From the NCBI GenBank assembly GCA_964527765.1, contig CAZGQR010000008.1, positions 14,264 to 78,263 on the forward strand: a DNA stretch of 64,000 bases, written 5' to 3'. Below the pieces are notes generated by a model. The model was not told the DNA's origin. It saw only the letters and a list, made by a program, of their open reading frames with translations, and did no database searches. A program made the translations under genes and the position numbers. This document shows positions 17,677-33,063 of the stretch, piece after piece. Positions within the stretch are counted from its first letter, which is position 1. Every line of letters starts with the position of its first letter. Source of the DNA: an uncultured Planctomycetia bacterium. Its GTDB lineage: Bacteria > Omnitrophota > Gorgyraeia > Tantalellales > Tantalellaceae.

Positions 17677-18225
17677 TCAAGGTTTTTGAGGTTCCTTTAA
17701 AATGTTAAATCTTATTACCATCAAAGCTATTACACTGCCCGCGGCATTCAGGACGGCATCCCTCCAGTCAAAGACCCTGTTCGGCAGTAACAGCTGAATG
17801 ATCTCATCCAGAAAACCCGCACTCAGGCAGAACAGGGAACCGAAAAGATAGAGTTTTTTATCGAACCTGTCGATGTCTATTTTCAGCGCGTTATAAACAA
17901 AAACCCCCAGAAGCGCGTATTCGATCAGATGTATCTTCTCCACGGGGAATCTCGACAGTCTGTTCAGCGCCAGGAATATCCAGACGAACAGAAAGAATAA
18001 AAGGTAACTGTTCGGGGACCTTTCTTTTTTCACAAAGATCATATAAGCAAAGAGGCAGACAGCCGCGATGAAAAAGACGATGTACACCGGGATAGTGCCT
18101 TTACCGCCTAAAGATGCGTTAAACCCGTCCCAGATCCGCGGAGCGACCCCGAGAGTGGAATAAACAACCATCAGGTATAACGCGGTTATCGCCCACCAGA
18201 CTTTTCTCAGGTATTTCTTTCTCAT
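17677..18225 (-). CDS. VanZ-like family membrane protein
   Basis: It has 4-5 TM segments and contains EKIHLIEYALLGVF and GFLDEIIQLLLPNRVFDWRDAVLNAAG, matching the VanZ-family conserved core. The start was chosen at MRKKYL to avoid a long overlap with the upstream gene. Confidence 0.65.
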   Translation of the reverse strand: MRKKYLRKVWWAITALYLMVVYSTLGVAPRIWDGFNASLGGKGTIPVYIVFFIAAVCLFAYMIFVKKERSPNSYLLFFLFVWIFLALNRLSRFPVEKIHLIEYALLGVFVYNALKIDIDRFDKKLYLFGSLFCLSAGFLDEIIQLLLPNRVFDWRDAVLNAAGSVIALMVIRFNILKEPQKP

Positions 18226-18248
18226 AAGACCCTTCTTTAAACCGCGGT

Positions 18249-19430
18249 TTACTCCGCAGGCGCGGCCACTGCGGACCTTCTGCGGGTACATACGGTTTTG
18301 AGCGTTTTACCGAAAATTATAAGAAAATGCCTTATCAAATAGGGGTACACCATAAAACTCAACAGGACAAATTTCACCGTATCCCATATGCTGTCGAACA
18401 TGACCAGTTCGGCAATGTAACCCGTGCTTGTGCCGGCATTTCTTATCTTACGGAAGAACCAGCGGTCGCTTTTTTTTGCCGACCGCCCCAGGTCCTCGAA
18501 CACCGCCCCGGGCACAGGCGTGCCGAACATATTCTTCGTGAAAAGAAGCGCGTAATAAAGCGGTTTTCTTATCCTGTACTTCCCGGCGGCGCCTGTCACC
18601 TCTTCCCAGCTTATCTCCCCCTCATGCTTCCGGATAAACTCATTGATATCGACATACCATCTGACACCCGAGAAGCTGTGCTGCATGGATACGTGCAGGC
18701 ACTGATAAAGAAGCGTGTGGACGATATCCAGCGTGCGTAACCTCACACCGCCCGCGCTGAGCACTCTCGCACGCTCCAGGATCCCGTTCACATCCATATT
18801 GAGGATCCTGTTGTGCAGCATGCGCCCGATAAAACTCCTGTGAACATCCAGGCATATCCCGTCGTCCCGGACATACAGTTTCTGGGCCCTGTAATCATCG
18901 GGGTCCCCCTTGCCGTCAGAGGGCGTAAATCCCTGCGCCTTCAATATCCCGTGGACCTTCCGCGCGTCTTCCGGCCGCACCAGCAGGTCGATATCAGCCA
19001 TCTCCCTGAGGCCGATATCGCCGTACACATCCATCAGATAGGAAACCCCTTTCGTGAAGATCACGTCCACCCTTTCCTTCCGGAAAAGATCCGACAGCGA
19101 TCCGGCGGCATCGAGGTTCCTGACATTGTAAGCAAAGATCTCGGCGGTCCATTCCCTCAAACGGGCATTCACCCTTTCGGGGATACCGCCGAAACCCTGC
19201 AGGGACCTGTAAGCGAGCGGGGACACCTGATATACATTGGCGAGTTCCAGGAAGCGGTCCCAGTCCACTTTTCCCGAGCGAAGTATCGACCCCGCTTCCG
19301 ACCGCTCCTTTTCGCCTAGAGACGTCCTGGAAAAGAGGATGACGAGCTTTTCCTCGACAGCCCTCGGTCCGGAAGGGCCGAGATCAATGGCCGGAAAAAT
19401 ATCTATCTGCTGCGTGATCATTCTGGGCAT
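18249..19430 (-). CDS. Uncharacterised nucleotidyltransferase family protein (NTP_transf_5 / PF14907-like)
   Basis: It contains ADIDLLV and a surrounding GS...D.D-type Pol-beta-like nucleotidyltransferase core. It is about 390 aa with an alpha-helical C-terminus. This architecture is typical of the family that recurs in RiPP neighbourhoods. Confidence 0.65.
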   Translation of the reverse strand: MPRMITQQIDIFPAIDLGPSGPRAVEEKLVILFSRTSLGEKERSEAGSILRSGKVDWDRFLELANVYQVSPLAYRSLQGFGGIPERVNARLREWTAEIFAYNVRNLDAAGSLSDLFRKERVDVIFTKGVSYLMDVYGDIGLREMADIDLLVRPEDARKVHGILKAQGFTPSDGKGDPDDYRAQKLYVRDDGICLDVHRSFIGRMLHNRILNMDVNGILERARVLSAGGVRLRTLDIVHTLLYQCLHVSMQHSFSGVRWYVDINEFIRKHEGEISWEEVTGAAGKYRIRKPLYYALLFTKNMFGTPVPGAVFEDLGRSAKKSDRWFFRKIRNAGTSTGYIAELVMFDSIWDTVKFVLLSFMVYPYLIRHFLIIFGKTLKTVCTRRRSAVAAPAE

Positions 19431-20138
19431 TTAAAAAAGGTCTATAAAGCTGCTGCCGGTCACGTGGATATCGGACCCGGGACCGTACCGCCTTTCCGCT
19501 GTTTCGATGATCCTCTCAAGAAACCTGCCGGCAAACTCAGCGTTCCTGTCCCTGTGCCTGACATGTATATCGACGATAACACCGTGTTCCTTTTCCATCC
19601 TAACCGCGGCATTCGCGCTCCTGGATCCTCCCACAAAAGCATAGACCTTAAATCCGCCCCTGCTCTTGTGGACGGTGAAAAACATGCCTCTATAAAAAAG
19701 CTTTCTGGTGTTCCTATAAAGCGCGCCTTTGGAAAAAACCAAAAGGACCGGATCGAGGAATCTCCTCTTAATAAGAAGAGGTGTCAGGTTATGGCGTGAA
19801 AGAACGGCGATGACCCTGCCTGCCCGGCGCCGGAGGAAGGAATCCAGGGCAAAGACCCTGTCGCCTCTTTTTACGGTTACCACTTTCCCTCTGACCCCTG
19901 AAAAAGGGACCATCTCGCCTGAACCGGCAAGGGTATTATCGCCCTTGGTAACCAAATATTCCTCTTTCTTATTGACACTGAGAACACGATGGATAGCGGT
20001 CGTCCCGTTCCCGGAGATACTGTAAGTTATTATATCGCCTGACCCGATCAAACAGGGGTCGAATTCCTGACATATACATTCGTCCAGGGTTTTGATAAAA
20101 GGATACATGCTCTGGCCGTGAACAATGATCTTGCTCAT
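19431..20138 (-). CDS. Signal peptidase I-like (S26/S24 Ser-Lys) domain fused to a C-terminal domain of unknown function, possibly GNAT-like
   Basis: The N-terminus contains IVHGQSMYPF (Ser nucleophile box) and YLVTKGDNTLAGSGE (Lys / box-E-like). The C-terminal ~110 aa have no clear motif. It lies immediately downstream of the candidate precursor gene. Confidence 0.6.
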   Translation of the reverse strand: MSKIIVHGQSMYPFIKTLDECICQEFDPCLIGSGDIITYSISGNGTTAIHRVLSVNKKEEYLVTKGDNTLAGSGEMVPFSGVRGKVVTVKRGDRVFALDSFLRRRAGRVIAVLSRHNLTPLLIKRRFLDPVLLVFSKGALYRNTRKLFYRGMFFTVHKSRGGFKVYAFVGGSRSANAAVRMEKEHGVIVDIHVRHRDRNAEFAGRFLERIIETAERRYGPGSDIHVTGSSFIDLF

Positions 20139-20154: not shown

Positions 20155-20454
20155 TTAAATGACGCCTAACCCGCTCTTGCACGTGTTAAAAGCGGCGTTG
20201 CCGTCTTTACAGGAAATAGTAGCCATCATGCCGTCCTTGCAGTGTTTCGGGGTCGGAGAATACTGGGATCCGGTAGAGCACCCCAGCGTGGCCGTACCCC
20301 CGTCCCTACATTGCCCGCCGGCCACCGCGCCGAAATCACAGAGCTGGCCCGCGCTGTGCCCGCTTTTGCAGTTGAACGCCTGGGCCCCCTTGATCGTCGC
20401 GCTGCTCAGATCGTGTGCGAGGGGCGGTGTGTATTTCTTCTTTTTCCTTTTCAT
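20155..20454 (-). CDS. Candidate RiPP/cofactor precursor peptide: 99 aa, Gly-rich, 7 Cys, seven C-x-x-G repeats
   Basis: It has a strong GAGGTGA Shine-Dalgarno sequence 6 nt upstream of the ATG. The sequence is MKRKKKKYTPPLAHDLSSATIKGAQAFN-CKSG-...-CDFG-...-CRDG-...-CSTG-...-CKDG-...-CKDG-...-CKSG-LGVI. It has no hydrophobic signal peptide. It is flanked by PqqD, peptidase, rSAM/SPASM and ABC exporter genes. Confidence 0.6.
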   Translation of the reverse strand: MKRKKKKYTPPLAHDLSSATIKGAQAFNCKSGHSAGQLCDFGAVAGGQCRDGGTATLGCSTGSQYSPTPKHCKDGMMATISCKDGNAAFNTCKSGLGVI

Positions 20455-20465
20455 GCATCACCTCT

Positions 20466-20738
20466 TCAGGTTTTATATCCGATAAATCCGGTCTTTTTCA
20501 TGTCTTTGATAAAAGCACTATAGTCCCCGGCGGCTTTATCGAGAGTGACATCATAGGCCTCTGTCATCTTTTCGACAATGCCGGGGGCCGCATTACCGCC
20601 GTCGCACAGGTCCCAGACGAACATGCCTGTCTCATTTATGCACAGCATATGCCCGTCCGAGGGATTGAAAAGAAGCGCTTCTTTCTGTTCTTTCCGCGCT
20701 ACAATATCAGGATTTCTCACGGGATATTTCTTTTTCAT
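20466..20738 (-). CDS. PqqD-family peptide chaperone (stand-alone RiPP recognition element)
   Basis: It reads MKKKYPVRNPDIVARKEQKEALLFNPSDGHMLCINETGMFVWDLCDGGN...IVEKMTEAYDV...FIKDMKKTGFI. It has a PqqD-like length and motif order. The start was chosen at MKKKY; the track ORF starts at 20810. Confidence 0.7.
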   Translation of the reverse strand: MKKKYPVRNPDIVARKEQKEALLFNPSDGHMLCINETGMFVWDLCDGGNAAPGIVEKMTEAYDVTLDKAAGDYSAFIKDMKKTGFIGYKT

Positions 20739-22452
20739 GGCCGGTCCTCTCTTTTTCAAGTTCGAACACCTTATCAGTGAACCACTCCGCGGTATCTCTA
20801 TGGGTAACAAAAAGAACGGTCATCTCCGGGAAACACGTCCTTATGCCTCTTAGGATATCGTCCTCCATCCCGGGGTCCAGAAAGGAGGTCGCCTCGTCCA
20901 TTATGAGTATCTTTGGTCTTCTCACCAGCGCTCTTGCGATCGCGACACGCTGCTTCTGCCCTCCCGAGAGAGACGACCCCAGCTCCCCTATGTCTGTATT
21001 ATAGCCGATGGACATCTCATCGGCAAGTTCGTCAAGCTTTGCCAGGCGCATGATATCCCGGACAAAACCTTCGGGCTTCTTTTCCCCCAAAAGCACATTT
21101 CTGATAATAGTATCATTGAATATGTACGGTTCCTGATGAACACAGGAGATATGCCTGGAAAAAGAGCTCATATTCATATCACGTATATCTATTCCCCCGA
21201 TCGAGATCCCCCCGCTCCAGGGTTTAAAAAGCCTGAGCAACAGGCCCAGAAGCGTCGTTTTACCCGCGCCGGAAGGCCCGGTTATCAGAGTCCATTTTCC
21301 GGCCGGCGCCACCAGATCCAATCCCCGGAAAAGAGCTTTGTCCCTGCTGTAGCCGAATGTAATATCGCTGGCCTCTATGTCCCCGCTGAACAAGGATACA
21401 TCCGGTACCCGTAAAGCTGGCCGGATCCCCTGGGGCTGCGTGATATCCCTGATGAAAACGGCATTTCTCTCTATTGACCGCCTTTCTTCGCTCAGGTTCT
21501 GGGCTATAGCTCCCAGGTTGTAAAACTCCGACAATATCATGGCGGAATACATGCTTACCGCGCTGAAAGAGCCGAGACTCAGTTTTCCGGTTATGATAAA
21601 ATATCCCCCTAAAAGCCAAAAAACCGCGGTACTCGCCTTCGAGAGGATATCGAATGCGATCCGTTCGTTCTGCCTGAAGACAGAAGACTTTCGCTCCATC
21701 CGGACCTTCCGCCGGAAAAGCTTCATTATCCTGTCCACTGCCCAGTCTTCCTTGAAAAAGCTCTTCACCAGTTTGATGTTTATAAGAAGATCATTGAACA
21801 GCGCGCCGTACCTGCTCGAAAAAAAGATATAACCGCTCTTTAGCCGCTGACGGCCCCGTGCCGCCCAGACCGTATGGATCGCCACCAGCGGCAGCGATAA
21901 AAGCACGAGCAGGCTCAGCTGCCAGGAAAGCAGGAACGAGAGGATAAAAAATACGGGTATCTTGACAAAGGAAAAGAAAGCCGGCAGTTCATAGAACACC
22001 AGGTTTTCGATGACTCCGCAGTCGTAATTCGCGAAAAAAGCGTTCTCCGCGGAACTCAGCTTTTTTATTTTCAGGTAATCGAGCCCGAAAAGCCTCCTCG
22101 CAAGATCATAGTTAACTTCAATGGAAAACTCTGTCCTGGCGCCGAGCATCAACCTCTCCGCCGCTATCTGCAATGCCTTCATCAACAGGAACACCAGAAG
22201 CCCGAGCACGGTGAACTTCACAAAAGCGCTAAGATCCCCGGCCATTATACCCTTATCCAGCGTGATCTTGGTTATGTAGATGATCAGAAGCCCGAGCGGA
22301 AAACTCAAAAGCTTCAGGATAAAGGCACGGGTCAATGAATTTCGGAACTTTCTCAGGATACCGAAAGCATAGACCAGAATGGTCCTGATATCCCCGAGAA
22401 CGGAAGTACCTCTCCCCAGCAGCGGATCCAGACTAAGTTTCAGGTCAAACAT
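20707..22452 (-). CDS. ABC exporter, fused permease/ATPase (type I exporter; no N-terminal C39 peptidase domain)
   Basis: It has six N-terminal TM segments, then Walker A GPSGAGKTTL, the signature LSGGQKQR and Walker B ILIMDEATS. Confidence 0.85.
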   Translation of the reverse strand: MFDLKLSLDPLLGRGTSVLGDIRTILVYAFGILRKFRNSLTRAFILKLLSFPLGLLIIYITKITLDKGIMAGDLSAFVKFTVLGLLVFLLMKALQIAAERLMLGARTEFSIEVNYDLARRLFGLDYLKIKKLSSAENAFFANYDCGVIENLVFYELPAFFSFVKIPVFFILSFLLSWQLSLLVLLSLPLVAIHTVWAARGRQRLKSGYIFFSSRYGALFNDLLINIKLVKSFFKEDWAVDRIMKLFRRKVRMERKSSVFRQNERIAFDILSKASTAVFWLLGGYFIITGKLSLGSFSAVSMYSAMILSEFYNLGAIAQNLSEERRSIERNAVFIRDITQPQGIRPALRVPDVSLFSGDIEASDITFGYSRDKALFRGLDLVAPAGKWTLITGPSGAGKTTLLGLLLRLFKPWSGGISIGGIDIRDMNMSSFSRHISCVHQEPYIFNDTIIRNVLLGEKKPEGFVRDIMRLAKLDELADEMSIGYNTDIGELGSSLSGGQKQRVAIARALVRRPKILIMDEATSFLDPGMEDDILRGIRTCFPEMTVLFVTHRDTAEWFTDKVFELEKERTGHEKEISREKS

Positions 22453-23246
22453 GAAAAAACGCTTTCGTGTTTTTTAAAATCCAGCATTCGAAACCCGACA
22501 CGTTCAACGATGTCGTTCATTATATCAAAAACATTCCTCAAGTATTCTCCCCTGTCCACAGCTCCCACGTTTTCGCGGAAAAAAGAGGCCGATTCGGGCA
22601 GGGCCCTGCGCAGGGCCTCGATCCCGGAAACGGAGCTTACCCCGTTCTTATCGGACTTGTTGAGCAGAAAAACGCCGCCTATCTCCCATTCCTCGGGATG
22701 GCCCCACAGAGGTAGAAAACACGGAAAACGCGCCGCGAAAAACCTCTCGCCGGACCTTTTTACCACGCAGAAATCATCATGTATCACATGCAGGCCTTTT
22801 TTCCCGGCCAGGGAACATATCGTGCTTTTTCCGCCCCCGCTCGGAGCGATGAAAAGATGGGCTTTACCGTTCATCACCACGGAAGCCGAATGTATAAAAA
22901 CTATATCCAGGACGCTTTGAAGATCCATGACCGAAAGATTAAGAAGCCTGTCCACCAAAAAATCGACAGATAGTCCCCTTTCGAAAAAACAGAATATTCT
23001 CCTTCTTTCGGCGTCATAAAGCTGCGCGACCCTTTTCCCGTGAACCGTTTTAATGTCGGCTCTCAGGGAACTTTTTTGTATCCTGACCGATATATCCGTC
23101 CTCCCGCACCTGTACAGGAATATATCAAGATCCGCTTGTTCCGCCTCGGACGGACCGGCTGGCTTGAATATCACCGGCCTTTCCTGAAAATTAAGAAAAT
23201 TCAGCCGTATGTTCGTTCCCAGAGCTTTATAACAGATCTTTTCCAT
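22440..23246 (-). CDS. HPr kinase/phosphorylase C-terminal-domain-like P-loop kinase (HprK-related)
   Basis: It contains FIHSASVVMNGKAHLFIAPSGGGKSTICSLA (P-loop) and HDDFCVV. It is 268 aa and has no HprK N-terminal domain. This type tailors peptides in RiPP clusters. Confidence 0.65.
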   Translation of the reverse strand: MEKICYKALGTNIRLNFLNFQERPVIFKPAGPSEAEQADLDIFLYRCGRTDISVRIQKSSLRADIKTVHGKRVAQLYDAERRRIFCFFERGLSVDFLVDRLLNLSVMDLQSVLDIVFIHSASVVMNGKAHLFIAPSGGGKSTICSLAGKKGLHVIHDDFCVVKRSGERFFAARFPCFLPLWGHPEEWEIGGVFLLNKSDKNGVSSVSGIEALRRALPESASFFRENVGAVDRGEYLRNVFDIMNDIVERVGFRMLDFKKHESVFSCLT

Positions 23247-24369
23247 ATCCCGCTCTCAGGGCTTCAGGCACGAGCCTGGTCGAAGGGAAAAAACCGTTAT
23301 CATAGGCTTCCTGACAGAACCAGTATGGAGCGAAAAGGTTCCCGGTGTTATGGTAGACCTCGGCTCTGCAGCTCCCCAGACATCTGTTCCTGAAAACACA
23401 GATACCGCAAACGCCCTCCAGGTTGAACGGTATTTCCTTCTTTATCCTGTTAAGAAGGGCGTTCTCGCGCCATATATGCCCCAATTTGGAAGGGTCTTTC
23501 CTGACCGTTCCGAAAACCAGTTTTTCATCAATATGGCCTATTCCGCATATAGATACGCTCCCGTCGGGCAGGATGCCGAGTATGTTCTTGATATTGCACA
23601 CCCCGCAGATCCCCGTGCGCACTTCCTCGACGCTCTTAAAAGCCACCGGTATGTCCAGATACAACAATCCACGGTATGATCTCCTGATGCCTTCAAGCTT
23701 CTCGGCGAATTCCAGGAGCTCTCTGACGGAAGGCACTTCCCCTCTTTCATGCAGTTCGGCTCCCCTGCCCAGGGGTGATATCGTATTCAATTTGATATTG
23801 TTCACCCCCAGTTCCCACATCGACTCTATAAACCCGATAATATCGGCAAAATTCTCCCTGTACATGCTTATTATCACCTGCGGGAACACGCCTTCCGCGA
23901 CCAGCGCCCTGATCCCTGCCAATGCCCTTTTGAACGCCCCCTTCCTTCCTCTGAAATGGTCGTTCATTTCCTCCAGGTGGCTGTCAAGGCTTACGGATAT
24001 ATAAAACGCCTTGTATTTTTTTATGGCGGAGGCCATCTTGCCGTCAATGAGGGTACCGTTCGTTTCTATGCCCACTTTTATATCCTCATCATGGCAAAAC
24101 CGTAATAGTTCTCCGATATCTTTCCGCAGCAACGGTTCGCCTCCGGTAAACTTCACATCCTTAAGCCCCAGTTCTTTCGCCGCTTTAATAATGGCGACTA
24201 TCTCCCCTGTCGATAGCTCCTCGTCATCATCCAGGCTTTCTTTCAAGGGAGGGGATATCCAACAATGCCTGCACCTCAGGTTACAATACCTGGTGGGATT
24301 TATATATAAACTTGTGAGATCTTTCCCGGGTATCCCGCTATCCGTGTTCCTCTTGTCACATAACCCCAT
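23227..24369 (-). CDS. Radical SAM/SPASM-domain enzyme 1
   Basis: It has a CNLRCRHC (CxxxCxxC) site near the N-terminus. The C-terminus has Cys clusters CGVCNIKN...SICGIG and CGICVFRNRCLGSCRAEVY (SPASM). The start was chosen at MGLCDK (24369), directly after the upstream stop. The track ORF is extended 5-prime. Confidence 0.8.
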   Translation of the reverse strand: MGLCDKRNTDSGIPGKDLTSLYINPTRYCNLRCRHCWISPPLKESLDDDEELSTGEIVAIIKAAKELGLKDVKFTGGEPLLRKDIGELLRFCHDEDIKVGIETNGTLIDGKMASAIKKYKAFYISVSLDSHLEEMNDHFRGRKGAFKRALAGIRALVAEGVFPQVIISMYRENFADIIGFIESMWELGVNNIKLNTISPLGRGAELHERGEVPSVRELLEFAEKLEGIRRSYRGLLYLDIPVAFKSVEEVRTGICGVCNIKNILGILPDGSVSICGIGHIDEKLVFGTVRKDPSKLGHIWRENALLNRIKKEIPFNLEGVCGICVFRNRCLGSCRAEVYHNTGNLFAPYWFCQEAYDNGFFPSTRLVPEALRAGYGKDLL

Positions 24370-24374
24370 ATAGC

Positions 24375-25472
24375 TTACCTCTGTTTTGACAAAACAATAT
24401 CCTCTTGCACCCTGAAGCCGTACAGATCCGAGAAAACAAGACAGGTCGACATGTTGATACCTCTCAAGTTCTCTCCGGCCGAATAATAAGCCGCCGCCCG
24501 GCATCCTCCGTTGCAATACGTGAGATAATCGCACCTGCTGCATTCTTTCCCGTATTTGACGAGAGGCTCATCCGCAAGCGACCTTATCTCGTTAAGGACT
24601 CCGGAATTCTCCCAGATATCCCTGAGCGACTGCTTCCTTGTGTCGCCGCAGACCAGCGTCCAGAACGCCGAACACGGGACCACCTTTCCGTCGGAACGTA
24701 TGGCCAGCATGGTATGTCCCGCGGGACAGGTAGAAAACGTCCCCCTGGCCCCCTTATCGCGGCCTTTCGCATAAAAGTCGCAAAGCATGTTTGTTTTCTG
24801 GCCGAGCGTCCCGCCCAGGCTGAAACCGGGATATTTCTCTTTCAACCGGAACATGGTCTCCATTATCCGGCGGTGCATCCCGCCCTCAAAGGTCAGTTCA
24901 TTGGCATAAACGGAAGCTCTGCCGCATGTCACGGCATCGCCGAAATCCATGCCCGAAAGGCCGAGGTCCATGGCCAGACGGACCATGTTCTCGATATCGT
25001 CCAGATTGTGTCTGTTGACTATGGCCTTGATGGAAACCGGAAGCTTTTCTTTTATGAGAAGTCTGACGCCGTTCAACGCTTTCTCGAATGAACCTTCCCC
25101 CCGCTGCCAGTCGTGGGCGGAAGCGCTGGAACCGTCGATGCTCACCTGCGTCCCGGCCAGGAACCTCATGCCTCTCATCCACTCCACGGCTTCCTCTCCG
25201 ATAAGGGTACCGTTGGTAAGGATGGTGACCCTCATCGGATAATTGTTAAGTATGCCCAGAAGTTCACGGATCCTCGGATAAATGAACGGCTCTCCGCCGA
25301 AGAGGTTCAGGCTAAAAACCTTCTCTGCCTTAAGCTGGTCCAGCACCTTTATTAATTCATCAAAGGAAAGCTGGTCTTTAAGATGCCAGGTGTCGGAAGT
25401 ATTGCAGTGCTTGCACCTCAGATTGCACCTGCCGGTAATGGCCAGGTCCACTATGGTGGGAAAAGGTCTCAT
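24375..25472 (-). CDS. Radical SAM/SPASM-domain enzyme 2
   Basis: It contains ITGRCNLRCKHC at residues 13-23. The C-terminus has CPAGHT...VVPCSAF...CGDT...CSRCDYLTYCNGGCRAAAY (twitch/SPASM). It has no N-terminal RRE. Confidence 0.85.
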   Translation of the reverse strand: MRPFPTIVDLAITGRCNLRCKHCNTSDTWHLKDQLSFDELIKVLDQLKAEKVFSLNLFGGEPFIYPRIRELLGILNNYPMRVTILTNGTLIGEEAVEWMRGMRFLAGTQVSIDGSSASAHDWQRGEGSFEKALNGVRLLIKEKLPVSIKAIVNRHNLDDIENMVRLAMDLGLSGMDFGDAVTCGRASVYANELTFEGGMHRRIMETMFRLKEKYPGFSLGGTLGQKTNMLCDFYAKGRDKGARGTFSTCPAGHTMLAIRSDGKVVPCSAFWTLVCGDTRKQSLRDIWENSGVLNEIRSLADEPLVKYGKECSRCDYLTYCNGGCRAAAYYSAGENLRGINMSTCLVFSDLYGFRVQEDIVLSKQR

Positions 25473-25491: not shown

Positions 25492-26269
25492 TTAATATTT
25501 TTCTCCGAATACCGACGCGCAGTGCTTAAATATTATCAGGCCCTCGGAATTAAAAAGCCATATTATCCTGTAAAAATCCTCTTTGGACAACGCGGTTGCC
25601 AATTTCTTGTTCACATCCCGCCGGACGGCTTTCAGGTCTCTTGTGCCGTCAAAAAATTTTACAAGATCCATAAGGGCTTTATCATCAAGACCGGGATTCG
25701 CAAAATCACGGCGAGAGGTAACCAGGCCGCATTTGCTCGTAACGTCCTTTACGAAATGAAGTTCCCTTTTTTCCCTGGAATAAAAAAGCGTCTTCAACCT
25801 GGTAAGAGGATTTGAAACGAACTTCATATCCTCCTTAAGCATTTCCATGATATACTCGTCAAGGCCTTTTTTCCTTTCCTTTTCGGGCTTCCGGCCCCTG
25901 GGCAGGTAGGCAAAGGATATTTGCCAGCCGTCCCTGCAGTAAAATTTTCTGCACGCCCCCGGCCTGTCCGGATAGATCGAGCATCTGTTGTCCTTGCCCA
26001 GGTACACGCAGGACCTGTCAGGTCTCCTCTCAAGCCACCACTCCCTGTTAACGCAGCTGGAGTCCTTGTTTTCGCATTCCTTCCTGGTCAGCCTGCATAC
26101 CTCCCTGGCCTTGTATTTTCCGGACCGGAACTCCTTCTCGCTGAGATTTACGTCATACGTCCTGCAGCAGATCGCCTCGCACAGGTCGCGGACCTCATCG
26201 CAGTTCCCGTTGCCGAAGAAAAGCCTTTTGTTTTTCGCGTCCAGTTTTAATTTTTGAGATCTCTTCATG
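25492..26269 (-). CDS. YkgJ-family (UPF0153, CxxCxxCC-type) putative Fe-S/Zn-binding protein with a C-terminal PqqD-like tail
   Basis: It contains CDEVRDLCEAICC and CVYLGKDNRCSIYPDRPGACRKFYC, matching the YkgJ pattern. The C-terminal ~100 aa (LMDLVKFFDGTRDLKAVRRDV...YRIIWLFNSEGLI) resemble a PqqD/RRE fold. The start is MKRSQK, with a GGGGGC Shine-Dalgarno sequence. The track ORF is over-extended. Confidence 0.6.
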
Positions 26270-26341: not shown

Positions 26342-27403
26342 TCAAAGGTATGCCTTGACCGCGTCGATGACCCTTTCCTGTTCTTGCGCGCTGAGGGAAG
26401 GGTAGATAGGTATGGACAAACAGCCGGAATAGGCCTCGTCCGTGCTCCGGAAACCGGACCTGAGCTCCAGGTACCGGTGCAGCGGTTTATACACGGGCCT
26501 TTTGCAGATAATGCCCTTTTCACCCATCCGTGAGATCGCCGCCGATATATCCTTTTTTGTCCTTACTACGTACCGGTAATAAACATGGTCGAATTCGCCC
26601 TTCGGCAACACCAGGTCCAGGTCCTTGAAAGCTTTATCATAACGCACGGCTATTTCTTTTCTCCGTCGGATAAATCCGGGGAGTTTTTCAAGCTGCGCCA
26701 CTCCCATGGCGGCCTGCACGTCCGTCATCTTGTAATTGAAGCGGACCCTGTAGTCCTCTTTCTCGTCATAATCGCGGAGGTCCCGCGCGAGGCGAAGGAT
26801 CTCCTCGTCATCGGAAAGAAGCGCCCCGCCTTCGCCGCAGGCCAGCATCTTATTGGCGTAAAAGGAAAGGATGCCGAAACGCCCGATACTTCCCGCCCGC
26901 CTGTCCCCGTACATCGCCCCGATAGACTGGGCGCAATCCTCAACAACGGGAACACCCGCCTCCTTGATCCTCCCGATGTCAGCGGGATTTCCGAACATGT
27001 GCGGCACGATAACGGCACCGGCGGCATCCGTTATATTATCTTTAACGCTCTCCGGGGAAATATTAAAACTTTCCGGTTCTATATCGCAGAGGCGGGGCCC
27101 GGCACCTGTCTGATATACGGCATTCAACGGCGCGCTGCACACATAGGACGGAAGCAGCACATCATCACCCGGACCCACTCCCAGGGCCGCAAGGCCCAGA
27201 TGCAGGGCTGATGTGCCTGAACTGGTCACGACCGCCGCCCTGACGCCCGCGAACCGGGCCAGGCGCTCCTCAAGCTCCCTTACCCTGTCCCCCTGGGTAA
27301 TATGTCCTGACTTTATTACTTCCGAAACTGCCTTTAACTCTTCATCTCCCAGAGTAGGCCTCGAATGCGGAATGATCTTTTCGGCCATATATGATCCTTT
27401 CAT
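26342..27403 (-). CDS. DegT/DnrJ/EryC1/StrS-family PLP-dependent sugar aminotransferase
   Basis: It contains a TSSGTSALHL...ED.AQS...G region and the catalytic-Lys region SFYANKML. Confidence 0.85.
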   Translation of the reverse strand: MKGSYMAEKIIPHSRPTLGDEELKAVSEVIKSGHITQGDRVRELEERLARFAGVRAAVVTSSGTSALHLGLAALGVGPGDDVLLPSYVCSAPLNAVYQTGAGPRLCDIEPESFNISPESVKDNITDAAGAVIVPHMFGNPADIGRIKEAGVPVVEDCAQSIGAMYGDRRAGSIGRFGILSFYANKMLACGEGGALLSDDEEILRLARDLRDYDEKEDYRVRFNYKMTDVQAAMGVAQLEKLPGFIRRRKEIAVRYDKAFKDLDLVLPKGEFDHVYYRYVVRTKKDISAAISRMGEKGIICKRPVYKPLHRYLELRSGFRSTDEAYSGCLSIPIYPSLSAQEQERVIDAVKAYL

Positions 27404-27408
27404 TCTTG

Positions 27409-28029
27409 CTACTCGATATCCAGCAGATACCTTAGCGCCCGGAATCCCTCGGCATATTTGACCTTGGCCTGGAATCCGCGAAAATTGGCAACCGCAATAA
27501 CACTCTCGACCATATCCAGACTGGTAGGGTATTCCCTTTCCACCTGCGACCTGTGAAGCTTTAGAAGTTTGCCCTTTTCATGCAGTTCTTCCCCGATATC
27601 CACGAAGATATCCGGCTCGAAGTTCCTGGACGTGTAATCCTCGTAAAAGATGACCTTCTTGTGATATCGCGCGGCGACGATGGTGCTTTCGGTAAGATAC
27701 CTGTGATCCTGGTGAGTGTCGTCGGGGTAATTGACGAAGATCAGGTCAGGATCGCATTCCTTTATGGCTTCTTCTATCTTCTCTATAAGTTCTTTACTGG
27801 CCGTGAGGCGCGTATCCATGAACCCGCCCCAGTAGACCTTTTTCACCCCCAGAAATTCAGCGGCTTTTTCCTGCTCCTTTATCCTGACCTCCGCTCCCCC
27901 GCTGAAATCACCATGGGTCGCTATGAAAAAACGTATATCCGCCTTTCGCCGTTTTTTCAGCTTCAAAAGCGTCCCCCCGCATCCGTACTCTATGTCATCC
28001 GGGTGCGCGCCTATCGCTAATATATTCAT
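27409..28029 (-). CDS. PIG-L/LmbE-family N-acetyl-sugar deacetylase
   Basis: It contains LAIGAHPDDIEYGCGGT and HQDH, which are zinc-dependent LmbE-like motifs. Confidence 0.8.
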   Translation of the reverse strand: MNILAIGAHPDDIEYGCGGTLLKLKKRRKADIRFFIATHGDFSGGAEVRIKEQEKAAEFLGVKKVYWGGFMDTRLTASKELIEKIEEAIKECDPDLIFVNYPDDTHQDHRYLTESTIVAARYHKKVIFYEDYTSRNFEPDIFVDIGEELHEKGKLLKLHRSQVEREYPTSLDMVESVIAVANFRGFQAKVKYAEGFRALRYLLDIE

Positions 28030-28712
28030 TGCTTTCTCCCTTCTCTTATAATGTCAAGACTTTTCCCGCCGCAGCAGAACAGTAGGTCCACGACCGACAT
28101 GTGCGGATAGAATCCGTTGAATATCTGGCTGTAACCGGGGTGCGAATAAGCCTGGAATTCAAGCGCGATCCCGCTTTTCCGGAACCGTTCTTTATCAAGG
28201 TAGTCGTCCCCGCCCGCTCCGGACACATACGTATCGGCTTTCAATTTTTCACAAATATCGACCAGTCTCTCCGTCTTGCCCGTTCCAACCCCTAAAGAAG
28301 AACTCCTGATGAGCTCCGCGCCTATTCCCAGCGTCTCTTTCAAATAACGGATGAAATGAATGTTAACATCCGCCAGGAACTCCCATTCCCTGTTAAAAGT
28401 ATCACTGAAAAACGGAAGATATTCCTTGAAATAAGGCGCGCGCGAGTAATTGAGCTCCAGCCCCTTGAGATGCTTGTTTCGCCAGGGCTGACGGCCATCT
28501 ATCCTGACGTCCTTGAGCAGCTGGCCGAACTCATACAGGACCGGCACCGTGAGCCACTGCCATCCTTCGGCATTGCGGATCTTGTTCCGGTTCTGCCACT
28601 CGTTCTTCTTGTACTGCACGTCATCCAGCAGGACAAAAACATCCGCCCGGTCCATTTTATCAAAATATCCCAGCCAGGGCAAATATTGCGGTTGATGAAT
28701 GGCTACTTTCAT
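28026..28712 (-). CDS. WbqC-like family protein
   Basis: It contains MKVAIHQPQYLPWLGYFDKM...DDVQY, the characteristic N-terminus of the WbqC-like family found in O-antigen loci. Confidence 0.65.
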   Translation of the reverse strand: MKVAIHQPQYLPWLGYFDKMDRADVFVLLDDVQYKKNEWQNRNKIRNAEGWQWLTVPVLYEFGQLLKDVRIDGRQPWRNKHLKGLELNYSRAPYFKEYLPFFSDTFNREWEFLADVNIHFIRYLKETLGIGAELIRSSSLGVGTGKTERLVDICEKLKADTYVSGAGGDDYLDKERFRKSGIALEFQAYSHPGYSQIFNGFYPHMSVVDLLFCCGGKSLDIIREGRKQ

Positions 28713-29734
28713 GTTCTCAGAAAATACCCCTTGTTTTGAACGACCCAGTCAATGAGGGCCTGCACGCCCTCTTCGACCTTGACTTTCGGCTTCCAGCCGA
28801 GGTCCTTGCGGGCTTTTTCGATATCACAGACAAACGTTTTCTGGTCTCCCGGGCGCCAATCGTCGAAACCGTACCGGACTTTCCTGTCCAGGGACCGCTC
28901 CAGCATGGAGATCAGCTCAAGCAGAGACAGGACATTTCCCGCCCCCCCGCCTATATTGTAAGCATTCCCGCCGGCTTTACCGATCTTATCGATCGCCTTC
29001 AGATAACAATCAACAAGATCACCTATCCAAAGGATATCTCTGGTCTGTTTGCCGTCGCCGTAAATAGTGATGGGGCTTCCCAGAACGGAGCATATCGTAA
29101 AGTGCGCCACCCAGCCCTGGTCCTCCACGCCAAACTGGCGCGGCCCATAAATGCATGACTGGCGGAAATCCACAGTCCTTAAACCGTATATCCTGGCGTA
29201 ATCCACTACATATTGATCCGCGGCGCCCTTGGAACAGCCATACGGAGAATGAAAATCCAGGGTCCTGTCCTCCGGGATGCCGCGAGGCAAGGACTTATAC
29301 CGATATTTTCCCTCTTTCTCGACCACTTCCAGATCATCCATGGCCCCGTAGACCTTGTTGGTCGAAGCGTTAAGAAGGACCGCCTCCGGCCGGAACCTCC
29401 TTACGCCCTCGCATATGTTAAACGTTCCCAGGGCATTGATCTCAAAATCTTCCCTCGGGTCCGACACGGAGAGGGTCACCGCGACCTGTGCCGCCATGTG
29501 CAGGACAACATCAATGCCCTTGCAATCAGTAAAACATGCCTTGACCTGCCTAAAATCCCTTATATCCCCTTTTAAAAAAGTGAATTTCGCCCGCTGTTCC
29601 AGCCATTCAAGGTTTTTTCCGGCGCCTTTACGGGACAAGTTATCAAAAATAATGACCTCATGACCTTCTTTAAGGAACCGTTCCGCGGAGTTTATCCCTA
29701 TAAAACCGGCCCCGCCGGTGATCAAGACTTTCAT
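28709..29734 (-). CDS. NAD-dependent sugar epimerase/dehydratase (CDP-paratose 2-epimerase-like SDR)
   Basis: It contains a TGGAGFIG Rossmann motif, a YxxxK site (YGCSKGAADQY) and a PRQFGVEDQGWVAHF region. Confidence 0.85.
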   Translation of the reverse strand: MKVLITGGAGFIGINSAERFLKEGHEVIIFDNLSRKGAGKNLEWLEQRAKFTFLKGDIRDFRQVKACFTDCKGIDVVLHMAAQVAVTLSVSDPREDFEINALGTFNICEGVRRFRPEAVLLNASTNKVYGAMDDLEVVEKEGKYRYKSLPRGIPEDRTLDFHSPYGCSKGAADQYVVDYARIYGLRTVDFRQSCIYGPRQFGVEDQGWVAHFTICSVLGSPITIYGDGKQTRDILWIGDLVDCYLKAIDKIGKAGGNAYNIGGGAGNVLSLLELISMLERSLDRKVRYGFDDWRPGDQKTFVCDIEKARKDLGWKPKVKVEEGVQALIDWVVQNKGYFLRT

Positions 29735-30912
29735 TTCCTTACCTCGCTTCCTGTTCTCGCGCTGAGCAACTCCCTGTATAACGCGTCCAGTGCGTCCACC
29801 ATTTTTTCCGCGGAATAATCGGCAAGCGCTTTTTTCCTTTCCTTCTCCCCCATGTGACGGGCCTCTTCAGTGTTGTCAAGAAGCTCATCCAGCGCTTTCG
29901 ATATGGCATCGGAAGAAGCCGACTCTATCAGAATACCGGCATTATCAAAAACAAGGGAAGAGACGCCGCCGACACGCGTCGCTATTACAGGTTTTCCCAA
30001 AAACATGGCTCCGACCAGCGTCCGCCCCATACCTTCGTTTAGCGAAGGCAGGACAAAAATATCAAGCGCGTTAAGCACGGCTCCGGTATTCTCCTGCCAC
30101 GGAATTATGTGAAATCTGTCCGTGATATCCGCGGCTGTCAGCATTTTCAGATATTTCCCGCGAAGCGGGCCATCGCCGGCTAAAAGAAAATGTATGTCTC
30201 TCTTCTTTTCCAGCTGTTTTACCGCCGCTTCTATAAAATACTCATATCCTTTTATTTCTATGAAACGCCCTATGGACCCTACCAGAACCTTGTCCGGCGG
30301 TATCCCGAGTTTTTTTCTCCAATCGACGCCGCTATTCACTTCACGTTCCAGATTTTCAAACTCTATGCCGCTGGGGATAGCGGTATAAAGATCTTCACCG
30401 CCGATCTCGTAACACAACCATTCATAACACTCCGCGCCGGTAAGGCCGATGATCTTGTCCGTTATCCGCGCGGCCATCCTCTCGGCCGATAATATCAGGT
30501 CGGTCAATATTCTTCCGAAATATTCGTAAAACACGTGCCCGTGAGGCGTAAAAACTATTTTTTCAATTCCCGCGCACCTGGCCGCGACACGGCATATGAA
30601 TCCCGCTTTATGCGAATGAGCGTGCATTATATCATATTTATTCCGGCGCATGAAACGCAGTATCTTAAAGAAAGCTATAATATCCCTTACCGGATGAACA
30701 TTTCTCACAAGGTCTTTTTGCGAAATAAAACGAACGCCCGCTTTTTTAGCCCTTTCAATAAGATCTTCATAAGGGTTTTCCGTATACCCGAATAAAAGAT
30801 CTACCGCGTATCCTTTTTGCGCGAGCCCGATAACGCTCAAAAGCGTATTCTCCGAAGAACCGCCTTTATCAAGCCTGGTAATCGCGTGTAATATTTTAAT
30901 TTTCTTTCTCAT
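29731..30912 (-). CDS. Glycosyltransferase family 4 (GT-B)
   Basis: It has a C-terminal EGMGRTLVGAMFLGKPVIATRVGG EX7E-like motif. Confidence 0.8.
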   Translation of the reverse strand: MRKKIKILHAITRLDKGGSSENTLLSVIGLAQKGYAVDLLFGYTENPYEDLIERAKKAGVRFISQKDLVRNVHPVRDIIAFFKILRFMRRNKYDIMHAHSHKAGFICRVAARCAGIEKIVFTPHGHVFYEYFGRILTDLILSAERMAARITDKIIGLTGAECYEWLCYEIGGEDLYTAIPSGIEFENLEREVNSGVDWRKKLGIPPDKVLVGSIGRFIEIKGYEYFIEAAVKQLEKKRDIHFLLAGDGPLRGKYLKMLTAADITDRFHIIPWQENTGAVLNALDIFVLPSLNEGMGRTLVGAMFLGKPVIATRVGGVSSLVFDNAGILIESASSDAISKALDELLDNTEEARHMGEKERKKALADYSAEKMVDALDALYRELLSARTGSEVRK

Positions 30913-30915
30913 ATA

Positions 30916-33063
30916 TTATTTCCGCAGGCGTCCTGTTTCAGCCAGCGATCCCTTTATTTCCATGAACACATCCCCGGGATCAATAAGGGAAAAACAGTCA
31001 AATTTTTTGCATTTTACCCTGCCGTTCCTGTAACAGGGGCTGCACTTGAGGTCCTTGCGGACGATCTTTGCGTGTTTTGATAAGGGACGTGTTTTCCTGT
31101 AATCCGTCGGACCGAATATCGCGACAACAGGAACATCCAGGGAAGCGGCAAAATGCATGATCCCGGAATCGTTGCCGACAACAACATCACATTTCCTTAT
31201 CAGGGAAGCCAATTGATGAAAATCGGTCTTTCCGACGGAAGAGGCAAATTTTACATCCGTCTCAGCGGCCAATTGTTCTTCCAGGCCCCTTTCGTTGCTC
31301 CCCCCGAGCAATATGACCTGGGCGTTCAGTTCTTTATGCGCCAGATCTACAAGCGCCGCAAATCCGGCTATCGGCCATCTCCTGAAATATGCCTGTTTCT
31401 CCCCGGACCCCGCATGCATGCCGATTATAATATTGCCGGTATTCATTTCGTTCTCTCTAAAAAATTCTTCAGCAAACCTTTCGTCACCTTCAATATCTAT
31501 CCTGGGATACGGCGGTAATTTCAACCCGAAATATTCGGCAAATCTCTTATGAACGTCATATTCATGAAGCGAAGGATCGGATACGCCTTTATCGGCAAGA
31601 AAAGAAAATGCCCCGGGGAGGGAAAACACCTTGCGTTTTACCGCCGCCGCGCTGAAAAAAAGCCAGCTTTTTAACCAGTCGGTATACGCGGCAGCTATGC
31701 CGATGTCGAACTTTTCCTTTCTGATATTCAGTATTTCTCTTGCCGGGCCGATAGCCCGCGGTTCCAGCAGAAGCATTTCTTCATCGGAAAAACCCAGGGC
31801 CGTTAATAATCCATAAACGACTTTCTCGCTGACAATGATCTTCACTTCACATTTTTCCTGTTCTTTCAATGCCCTGATCAGGGGATAGATAAGAATGGTG
31901 TTTCCGACCCCGCCCAGATCAAGAATAAGGGCTTTCGCGCCGGAAGCGCTTTCTCCGGCGCCTTCAAGGATGTCCAGCATCCTTTGCGCCATATCTTCAG
32001 GGTTAAACAGTGCCGCTCTTTCATGGCCGCGTTCCGCACATTGTTTCCTGGTATCTTCCTCCTCGAGCAGTTTAAGGACGGTTTCGGAGATGTTGTCCAC
32101 GTTATAAGGATCAAAGAACACGGCGGCTTCACCGAGCACTTCGGGCATCGGCCCGGCATTTGAAGCCGCCACGGGCACGCCTGCGGCCATCGCTTCTATC
32201 AGCGGTATCCCGAAACCTTCGGCCAGTGAAGGAAAAACAAGGACGGAAGCGTTTTTCAGGAAGATATATATATCGTCGTGACTGAGATTCATAACGGGTA
32301 TGATCTTCCCGCCCAACTGCTTCTCTTCGATAACCGACTTGATATTTACCGTCTCGTTCCTGGAACCGCCGACCAGCATCAGCCTGTGGGTTTCCTTTAC
32401 ATGCTCCGGCAGCAGATCAAAGGCCGAGATCAATCTCGATAAATTCTTATGCGGTTTAAAATTCCCGAGATATAGGATATACGGCTTGTGCAGATCGTAT
32501 CGCGCCGTAAGCTCCGTGATCCTTTTATCCGGTTTTTCCGGCGCCGCCGGCATTTTCACCGACGGATAGACCACCTCCAGTTTGTCCCGCTTTATCCTGA
32601 ATATCCTCGACACCCTGTCTTTTGCGTCCTCGGAAAGGGTAATGACCTTCGCCGCCCGGCGGCTGCAAAAAAAGGAATAAAATGAAAAATGCGCCTTTTC
32701 CAGTATGGCCTTGGCGCCTTTATATTTTGAGACGGTCAGCGGTATAACGTCGCACACGGTATTTACATACGGGCACACGCGCCGGAAAGGCGTTTTAATG
32801 TACGGGGAGAAAAAAACATCTATTTTTTCTCTCCCGAGCGCCGCCGGGAGCCGGAACTGATCCCACAAAAAAGTATTTTTCTCCGGGATGATGACCTTTT
32901 TGCATCCATCCGGTAAAAAAGCCGTGTCGGTGAACTGATTGCAGAACAGGACGAACTCGTGCTTCCAGGATATCCTGGCATACGTGAGAAAGTTCTCAAG
33001 GATACTGCGTATTCCCGTAAAGGTATTTTTCCGGAATTCCCGGACATCGATCCCGATTTTCAT
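30916..33063 (-). CDS. Bifunctional glycosyltransferase: N-terminal GT4 domain fused to C-terminal GT9 (heptosyltransferase-like) domain
   Basis: Residues 1-360 are GT4 (FPSLAEGFGIPLIEAMAAGVPV). Residues ~370-715 are GT9 (MHAGSGEKQAYFRRWP, GNDSGIMHFAASLDVPVVAIFGPTD). Confidence 0.75.
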   Translation of the reverse strand: MKIGIDVREFRKNTFTGIRSILENFLTYARISWKHEFVLFCNQFTDTAFLPDGCKKVIIPEKNTFLWDQFRLPAALGREKIDVFFSPYIKTPFRRVCPYVNTVCDVIPLTVSKYKGAKAILEKAHFSFYSFFCSRRAAKVITLSEDAKDRVSRIFRIKRDKLEVVYPSVKMPAAPEKPDKRITELTARYDLHKPYILYLGNFKPHKNLSRLISAFDLLPEHVKETHRLMLVGGSRNETVNIKSVIEEKQLGGKIIPVMNLSHDDIYIFLKNASVLVFPSLAEGFGIPLIEAMAAGVPVAASNAGPMPEVLGEAAVFFDPYNVDNISETVLKLLEEEDTRKQCAERGHERAALFNPEDMAQRMLDILEGAGESASGAKALILDLGGVGNTILIYPLIRALKEQEKCEVKIIVSEKVVYGLLTALGFSDEEMLLLEPRAIGPAREILNIRKEKFDIGIAAAYTDWLKSWLFFSAAAVKRKVFSLPGAFSFLADKGVSDPSLHEYDVHKRFAEYFGLKLPPYPRIDIEGDERFAEEFFRENEMNTGNIIIGMHAGSGEKQAYFRRWPIAGFAALVDLAHKELNAQVILLGGSNERGLEEQLAAETDVKFASSVGKTDFHQLASLIRKCDVVVGNDSGIMHFAASLDVPVVAIFGPTDYRKTRPLSKHAKIVRKDLKCSPCYRNGRVKCKKFDCFSLIDPGDVFMEIKGSLAETGRLRK

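Follow-up and report, generated by a model that had tools for sequence, protein, structure and literature searches.

What is encoded by a short open reading frame (ORF) with a regular series of cysteines, located amid genes for two radical S-adenosylmethionine (rSAM) enzymes, and which process would it serve? The question is raised by a stretch of 64,000 nucleotides (the window) on contig CAZGQR010000008.1 of an uncultured bacterium of the Omnitrophota lineage, for which a preliminary description had proposed that the ORF specifies a precursor for the two neighbouring rSAM/SPASM enzymes. Our analysis supports that proposal by purifying selection on the gene, by the peptide family to which it can be connected and by the genomic contexts of the relatives. 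The reading we arrive at is that the ORF encodes the ribosomal, ScmA-like precursor of a ribosomally synthesised, post-translationally modified peptide (RiPP), which would be produced by a divergent SynChlorMet-type (SCM) cassette in a Candidatus Omnitrophota bacterium. We put the probability of this reading at about 80%, a figure that covers the role as precursor and substrate, the specific chemistry being much less certain.

The translation that had been given was exactly reproduced from the minus strand, including the seven Cys, each within a C-x-x-G tetrad (CKSG, CDFG, CRDG, CSTG, CKDG, CKDG and CKSG), and the 14 Gly. The strong Shine-Dalgarno sequence and the position of the gene, between those for the S26 peptidase and the PqqD protein, could also be confirmed (11 nt separate the PqqD stop from the peptide gene, which in turn is followed after 16 nt by the S26-like gene, a tight operon spacing). 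The spacing of the repeats, described as 8-15 residues, had to be corrected: the Cys are found at residues 29, 39, 49, 59, 72, 82 and 92, with distances of 10, 10, 10, 13, 10 and 10, i.e. a regular decapeptide period, and the +6 position is Ala in five of the seven units. Similarly, the statement that each Cys precedes two polar residues and Gly is valid for the Gly in all seven cases and invalid for the two polar residues in CDFG. NCBIfam and Pfam scans returned no match for the peptide, and no second ScmA-like ORF was found in the 64-kb window. The AlphaFold2 model has an average predicted local distance difference test (pLDDT) score of 42.6, with values below 50 in the core and no predicted fold, which fits an unfolded RiPP substrate.

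Loss of the ORF, or of its Cys, in related loci had been named as a ground for abandoning the proposal; in the four homologues (55-88% identity) all seven Cys are invariant and so are most of the +3 Gly. Comparison with a 69%-identical orthologue yielded a dN/dS of 0.19 (dS = 1.29) and the exact peptide sequence has been gene-called on 20 contigs from several metagenomes. That the ORF might be spurious, antisense or a chance open frame had to be considered, as the opposite strand in the window also holds an open ORF of 108 codons. However, the sense frame is the only one that is open throughout five orthologues, the opposite-strand and alternative frames being interrupted by stops, and homologues are present in several phyla. 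Because of the conserved homologues, the dN/dS value, the frame openness and the recurrent gene calls we rejected this explanation, whose probability is practically negligible; by these measures the ORF is a real gene under purifying selection.

To identify relatives, a profile (A1) that was built from five Omnitrophota sequences only was searched against 1.84 billion representative proteins. It matched 47 proteins at E<=1e-3, nearly all of 66-123 aa, which follow a common plan: a Lys/Arg-rich N-terminus (on average 3.7 K/R ahead of the leader motif), a leader motif Y-E-P-P-x-[IV]-Y-[DE]-L (derived from position frequencies in 78 peptides), usually 11 residues between that motif and the first Cys, and a core of 4-9 or more tandem C-x-x-G-x-x-(A/P)-x-x-x units. 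In a 45-sequence alignment the Tyr at the start of the motif (Y8) and its second Pro (P11) are invariant. Within the 78 peptides, xxG follows 427 of the 442 Cys, consecutive Cys lie 10 residues apart in 242 cases and 11 apart in 74, and the +6 position holds Ala (80%) or Pro (15%). Gly(+3) and Ala/Pro(+6) are the only conserved core positions apart from the Cys, and the remaining positions of the unit are free to vary. Since Cys and +3 Gly are maintained both in the close homologues and at this frequency throughout the family, the C-x-x-G pattern is not a matter of chance. Judged by its leader motif and its repeats, the window peptide is a member of this wide leader-plus-Cys-repeat family, in which the YxPP...DL motif is presumed to be the site recognised by PqqD, acting as RiPP recognition element (RRE).

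The genomic contexts of the family were then compared for the window and twelve other distinct loci (13 in total); a separate scan of genome contigs with the ScmF-like protein yielded six loci, single-protein patterns being too specific. In 12 of the 13 contexts the peptide gene was part of a cassette that contains an ScmC gene (PF27840), two rSAM/SPASM genes and between one and three PqqD genes. The full cassettes are those of the window, L001, L002, L008, L009, L010, L013, L015, L016, L017, L019 and L020, and their hosts include Omnitrophota, several metagenome-assembled genomes (MAGs) of Desulfobacterota/Thermodesulfobacteriota and one groundwater MAG. The close homologues reside in syntenic loci of Candidatus Omnitrophota MAGs with the same flanking cassette, some of whose records are labelled 'Planctomycetia'. 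In the cassettes examined the peptide gene usually adjoins the ScmC gene. Genes for an S26-like peptidase and an NTP_transf_5 protein occur in most cassettes, the former mostly next to the peptide or the ScmC gene and the latter in nearly all that were examined, the ABC exporter is conserved in the Omnitrophota loci plus L013 and L020, and the VanZ gene in the Omnitrophota loci plus L013.

The combination of genes is known from the SCM system, which is catalogued in NCBIfam/TIGRFAMs as ScmA (TIGR04252), ScmC (TIGR04249), ScmD (TIGR04248), ScmE (TIGR04250) and ScmF (TIGR04251). The window cassette has the same gene set (PqqD, two PqqE-like rSAM/SPASM enzymes, an HprK-like protein and a small peptide) and the Scm models are the best NCBIfam match for each of the window enzymes. 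The connection can be made explicit via locus L016, which passes the cut-offs for ScmE (540 vs 400 bits), ScmF (479 vs 400) and ScmC (163 vs 125), has 99.3 vs 100 bits for ScmD, and is by the NCBIfam cut-offs a bona fide SynChlorMet cassette. Its peptide, P0062, matches the family profile with E=6e-15 and closely resembles P0034, which in turn is matched by the Omnitrophota-only profile A1 at 6.4e-6; the window peptide is in this manner homologous to a peptide inside a cassette that passes the cut-offs. It also shares with the L016 peptide the YEPP...[DE]L type of leader (YTPPLAHDL in the window) and the tandem Cys-x-x-Gly repeats (seven units). The ScmA model itself, which comprises 49 positions and in relatives covers the stretch between the YEPP motif and the initial repeats, both included, weakly matches 30 of 45 family members in an NCBIfam scan, and its cut-off of 35 bits is reached by none of the individually scored peptides (the best, P0056, has 25.7 bits).

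Since L016 is a bona fide SCM cassette and P0062 belongs to the same family, we consider the window cassette to be a divergent, Omnitrophota-specific variant of the predicted SynChlorMet RiPP system; the window member falls outside every curated model. With respect to the SCM versions of the Desulfobacterota, the Omnitrophota version adds the ABC exporter, VanZ and the CxxCxxCC protein and, unlike several of those cassettes, lacks a B12-dependent rSAM enzyme. The core of the window peptide, with seven repeats and 71 aa, is also longer than that of many Desulfobacterota members (~50 aa). The extra B12-binding rSAM genes are located at L010:6867-8333, L015:2907-4319, L019:5280-6689 and L020:177-1601. 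Like the additional PqqD copies that the Desulfobacterota cassettes also carry, they have no counterpart in the Omnitrophota version, and they may point to further (methylation?) chemistry in the lineages concerned.

The features of the locus are collected in Table 1. All ten cassette genes, from the gene for the 258-aa protein through the VanZ gene, lie on the minus strand.

Table 1. Peptide gene and surrounding cassette in window coordinates, with the basis of each assignment (NCBIfam/Pfam hidden Markov model (HMM) scores in bits, against the model cut-off where given).
Feature	Position	Strand	Basis or remark
Accessory 258-aa protein, weak CxxCxxCC (putative Zn/Fe-chelating)	25492..26268	-	PF03692, 20.6 vs cut-off 23
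ScmE-like radical SAM/SPASM enzyme	24375..25472	-	TIGR04250, 221 vs cut-off 400, best match
ScmF-like radical SAM/SPASM enzyme	23227..24543	-	TIGR04251, 316 vs cut-off 400, best match
ScmC-like P-loop protein, HprK/PEPCK kinase fold	22440..23246	-	weak HprK_rel_A and ScmC matches; AlphaFold2/Foldseek
ABC exporter, fused permease and ATPase, without peptidase domain	20707..22452	-	ABC_membrane and ABC_tran
PqqD-family peptide chaperone (RRE), ScmD-like, 90 aa	20466..20738	-	PF05402, 56 bits; TIGR04248, 44.9 vs 100
Shine-Dalgarno sequence GAGGTGA of the peptide gene	20458..20464	-	direct sequence reading; ATG 3 nt downstream
ScmA-like precursor peptide gene	20155..20454	-	99 aa / 99 codons; homologues, dN/dS, profile family
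Predicted leader, roughly residues 1-26	20377-20454	-	
Leader motif Y-T-P-P-L-A-H-D-L, residues 8-16	20407..20433	-	window version of the family motif
Predicted core, residues 27-99	20158-20376	-	seven C-x-x-G-x-x-A decapeptide units
Soluble S26-family (Sec11/SipW-type, Ser/His) peptidase	19431..20138	-	TIGR02228, 52.2 vs cut-off 51.85
NTP_transf_5 nucleotidyltransferase-fold protein	18249..19430	-	PF14907, 172 bits
VanZ-like membrane protein	17677..18291	-	PF04892 and NF037970

Taken together, the components allow a mechanism to be proposed. The stand-alone PqqD protein (RRE), whose length is that predicted by gene callers, would bind the leader motif and offer the core, which is disordered, to the two rSAM/SPASM enzymes (ScmE- and ScmF-like), both of which would act iteratively, with one round per decapeptide unit. 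The likeliest product would be one in which the Cys sulfur is joined to a carbon of a nearby residue (a thioether of the sactionine/ranthionine type). Because the Cys is the sole invariant reactive side chain and the acceptor residue is not conserved, we place this thioether chemistry slightly below an even chance. Decoration with phosphate, nucleotide or sugar-phosphate may be the task of the ScmC-like protein with its kinase fold and of NTP_transf_5, by analogy with the pairs of HprK-like kinase and PF14907 protein of phosphorylated lasso peptides; alternatively, their role may be ATP-dependent and non-catalytic. The soluble S26 peptidase would subsequently cut the leader at a small-x-small site (in the window A-Q-A|F, residue 26) and the ABC transporter would export the product. 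A more far-reaching version is that the ScmA-like peptides constitute a chemically new RiPP class, in which the ScmE/ScmF pair turns the decapeptides into an undescribed ring or modification (for instance a fixed i+3 or i+6 link that joins Cys to the alpha-carbon of Gly or Ala, or a radical transformation in two steps), resulting in a seven-unit 'ladder' that is phosphorylated or nucleotidylated and released by the S26 peptidase; this version, examples included, we consider rather unlikely.

Several observations weigh against the identification of the peptide as an SCM-type precursor with the proposed chemistry. The window peptide has no match with the ScmA model even at E<=10 and every window enzyme remains below the equivalog cut-off of its Scm model (the ScmC-like protein has 21 bits vs a cut-off of 125), so that adjacent ScmE, ScmF, ScmC and ScmD proteins above their cut-offs are not found in the window. 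The rSAM enzymes score equally well against the HMMs of AhbD, NirJ, PqqE and MftC as against those of sacti- and ranthipeptide synthases. The repeat has no conserved Asp, Asn or Thr acceptor, unlike known ranthipeptides. Finally, one family member, in a Syntrophus MAG (L014), has no maturase gene within 8 kb. The neighbours of this orphan ScmA-like gene (L014:8001-8351, 116 aa) are PAS/histidine-kinase genes and small ORFs that lack annotation.

Part of these observations bears on the question whether the rSAM enzymes perform S-C thioether chemistry at all. The peptide could be a precursor in which the Cys undergo formylglycine-like oxidation (as by anSME), in which residues are epimerised or C-C/C-N crosslinks are introduced, or in which the Cys are ligands or handles and the invariant Gly and Ala/Pro are the modified or conformational positions. 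The two enzymes, both of which contain a Radical_SAM (PF04055) and a SPASM (PF13186) domain, indeed give little preference: WgkB can be added to AhbD, NirJ, MftC and PqqE as models that score as well as StsB, PapB and AlbA, and the maturases lie outside the characterised families, far below the NCBIfam cut-offs for PapB (68-91 bits vs 340), StsB (102-114 vs 625), AlbA (77-84 vs 850) and SkfB (79 vs 300). The sequences nearest to the ScmF-like enzyme in the Protein Data Bank (PDB) are BlsE, PqqE and SkfB, and anSME is among the PDB sequence matches. Moreover, two different rSAM/SPASM enzymes are always present, and therefore two different reactions are suggested, and the repeat offers no conserved acceptor side chain. 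Yet among solved structures the closest in sequence to the ScmE-like enzyme is the thioether-forming sactisynthase SkfB (8e-21, followed by 5wgg), the Cys is the sole invariant side chain in every unit, and thioethers are, to our knowledge, what the Cys form in those Cys-rich substrates of rSAM/SPASM enzymes that have been characterised (subtilosin, SKF, SCIFF, freyrasin, QhpC). We regard such other chemistry as a genuine possibility, at odds well below even.

A product that is not secreted would be another matter: the peptide might become a QhpC-like crosslinked structural or cofactor-bearing polypeptide, or give rise to a small redox cofactor like PQQ or mycofactocin for the cell's own use. 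The combination of leader, rSAM/SPASM enzyme, dedicated serine peptidase and ABC exporter parallels the maturation of the quinohemoprotein amine dehydrogenase gamma subunit, the cassette includes PqqD- and PqqE-like components, and in Omnitrophota the locus shows vertical conservation, with housekeeping genes (tgt, yajC, secDF) on one side and cell-envelope sugar genes on the other. The cassettes examined hold no conserved partner dehydrogenase or oxidoreductase, however. Nor does the peptide look like a cofactor precursor, in which the reacting residues would be fixed: the family has anywhere from 4 to 9 or more repeats, and the positions that separate Cys, Gly and Ala vary freely. We consider this outcome improbable. 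Even less credit is given to an ordinary small Cys-rich protein, metal-binding or disulfide-bonded and uncrosslinked, with an incidental rSAM neighbourhood. Seven regularly spaced Cys, the many Gly and the Syntrophus copy would agree with it, but the peptide stays inside the cassette in all the other contexts, across Omnitrophota, Desulfobacterota and the groundwater MAG, it has a conserved leader-like N-terminal motif and no signal peptide, and no fold is predicted for it. The metal-binding and the spurious-ORF explanations are thus both at odds with the selection data, with the leader motif and with a cassette context that is conserved, and we maintain the ScmA-like precursor as the preferred reading.

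The accessory proteins were inspected with respect to the steps that the precursor reading assigns to them. The ScmC-like protein has the Walker A motif APSGGGKST, an invariant P-loop; a word-indexed search with the protein reached 11 proteins, and its homologues carry the Pfam domain PF27840 (ScmC). Its AlphaFold2 model (pLDDT 84.6) was matched by Foldseek with structures of PEPCK and HPr kinase (E 1.6e-6 to 5e-5), on which basis we confidently predict a P-loop protein with the PEPCK/HPr-kinase fold. For the S26-like peptidase, an HMM score above the cut-off is combined with the catalytic boxes of S26 signal peptidase I (Sec11/SipW type): the GxSMxP, HR and KGDN boxes are conserved in the alignment of seven cassette homologues (A3). 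Direct reading of the sequence reveals no N-terminal membrane anchor and a Ser box that begins at residue 8, and the S26-like proteins of the other cassettes likewise start at the Ser box and lack an anchor. The enzyme is presumed to be the leader peptidase, and a cut between leader and core after A-Q-A (residue 26) plausibly fits the S26 -3/-1 rule. Neither S26 nor signal peptidases are mentioned anywhere in a review of RiPP leader peptidases from 2023. The NTP_transf_5 protein is, by analogy, a possible tailoring enzyme and the VanZ-like protein possibly has an accessory or immunity function. In L020 the S26/SipW-type domain (residues 38-117; TIGR02228, 44 bits) and NTP_transf_5 are fused in a single protein of 559 aa (L020:10280-11959), which suggests that the products of the two adjacent window genes act together.

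At 438 aa, the longest reading frame for the ScmF-like enzyme would share 169 nt with the ScmE-like gene. Because the orthologues measure only 376-381 aa, the true start is probably an internal Met near 24369, giving a protein of ~380 aa. For the 258-aa protein, a gene of equal length is found at the equivalent place in L001 and L002, none is present in L008 and the Desulfobacterota cassettes, and by this distribution the CxxCxxCC protein is clade-specific. An impression by eye that its C-terminal half could be an RRE was dropped, as there was no Pfam hit.

On the 5' side the cassette is bordered by a cell-envelope sugar cluster (26342-33063 on the minus strand, and beyond), with genes for a DegT aminotransferase, a PIG-L deacetylase, WbqC, an NAD-epimerase-like protein and several GT4/GT9 glycosyltransferases, and on the 3' side by genes for a response regulator, tgt, yajC, secDF, a cation efflux gene, recJ and recG. 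The sugar cluster and the downstream genes are syntenic in the Omnitrophota loci L001 and L002. A promoter scan was weakly above background, with the best candidate for a predicted operon promoter at 26345-26318 (minus strand); the terminator scan of the window gave no signal above background, and no tRNA, tmRNA or Rfam family was found at the gathering threshold in the window (1-64000).

The SCM cassette has been present in protein-family databases for more than 10 years, and a full-text search of the literature found no paper on the cassette, its proteins, its product, its chemistry or its motif. The type of system has already been catalogued, in silico only, and the finding is therefore less novel than it first seemed. 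What is added is, in the first place, a much wider and sharper definition of the substrate (the leader motif together with a Cys-Gly-Ala repeat of strict decapeptide period). The window peptide escapes the ScmA model, every tested relative stays below the cut-off of that model, and genome annotators label such genes 'hypothetical'. In the second place, two further components were found to recur in most cassettes, the soluble S26-type peptidase and the NTP_transf_5 protein, which are fused in one genome; the full-text search found neither these links nor the decapeptide rule in any paper. Should the chemistry be new, there would be a further RiPP class, widespread among uncultured anaerobic lineages (Omnitrophota, Desulfobacterota); should the peptide turn out to be an ordinary sacti- or ranthipeptide, the family would have been extended in a useful yet incremental way.

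Among the characterised systems, freyrasin is functionally the closest parallel to the formation of one ring in each repeat. Its precursor PapA reportedly consists of C-x-x-x-D units in which PapB uses the Asp as acceptor; like the window core, it is a tandem array of short one-Cys units, and these are processed iteratively by an rSAM/SPASM enzyme. The window units differ in being C-x-x-G-x-x-A/P, with no conserved acidic or polar acceptor, and in having two rSAM enzymes plus a discrete PqqD instead of one enzyme with a fused RRE. The sactipeptides and SCIFF peptides (SkfB, AlbA, CteB) have in common with the window system a Cys-rich precursor and rSAM/SPASM maturases, and the radical SAM core plus SPASM domain typical of sactipeptide and ranthipeptide maturases is found in both window enzymes. 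Unlike sactipeptides, however, the window peptide has no nested hairpin of N-terminal Cys and C-terminal acceptors. The preliminary description had stated that it does not match the SCIFF pattern, and this holds: there is no C-x-x-x-C and no NCBIfam SCIFF match, and SCIFF (~45 aa with a C-terminal six-Cys motif) was rejected for a peptide of 99 aa with regular 10-residue spacing.

The Qhp system (QhpC/QhpD/QhpE/QhpF), which is said to mature the gamma subunit of quinohemoprotein amine dehydrogenase, resembles the cassette in combining a leader-bearing, Cys-rich polypeptide of ~100 aa with an rSAM/SPASM enzyme, which in Qhp forms thioethers, a dedicated serine protease and an ABC-type exporter. 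The window cassette lacks the dehydrogenase subunits, its protease is of the S26 type whereas that of Qhp is of the subtilisin type, and the quino_hemo_SAM model gives 71 bits vs a cut-off of 453. With the phosphorylated and glycosyl-phosphorylated lasso peptide clusters of Firmicutes (paeninodin, pseudomycoidin), which contain an HprK-like kinase, NTP_transf_5 (PF14907) and a PqqD-type RRE and provide the precedent for Ser phosphorylation of a precursor, the window shares only these three components; it has a Cys repeat in place of a lasso core, along with rSAM enzymes. A lasso peptide cluster was rejected as an assignment, as neither a lasso cyclase (Asn-synthetase-like) nor a B2 protease was found among the ten cluster proteins. 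The ACGX-repeat system (rSAM_ACGX, TIGR04340), itself predicted in silico, likewise pairs an rSAM/SPASM enzyme with a repeated Cys-Gly peptide. Its motif is A-C-G-x, whereas that of the window is C-x-x-G; the ACGX peptide model had no match in the NCBIfam scan of 45 family members, and the rSAM_ACGX model gives 82 bits vs a cut-off of 400.

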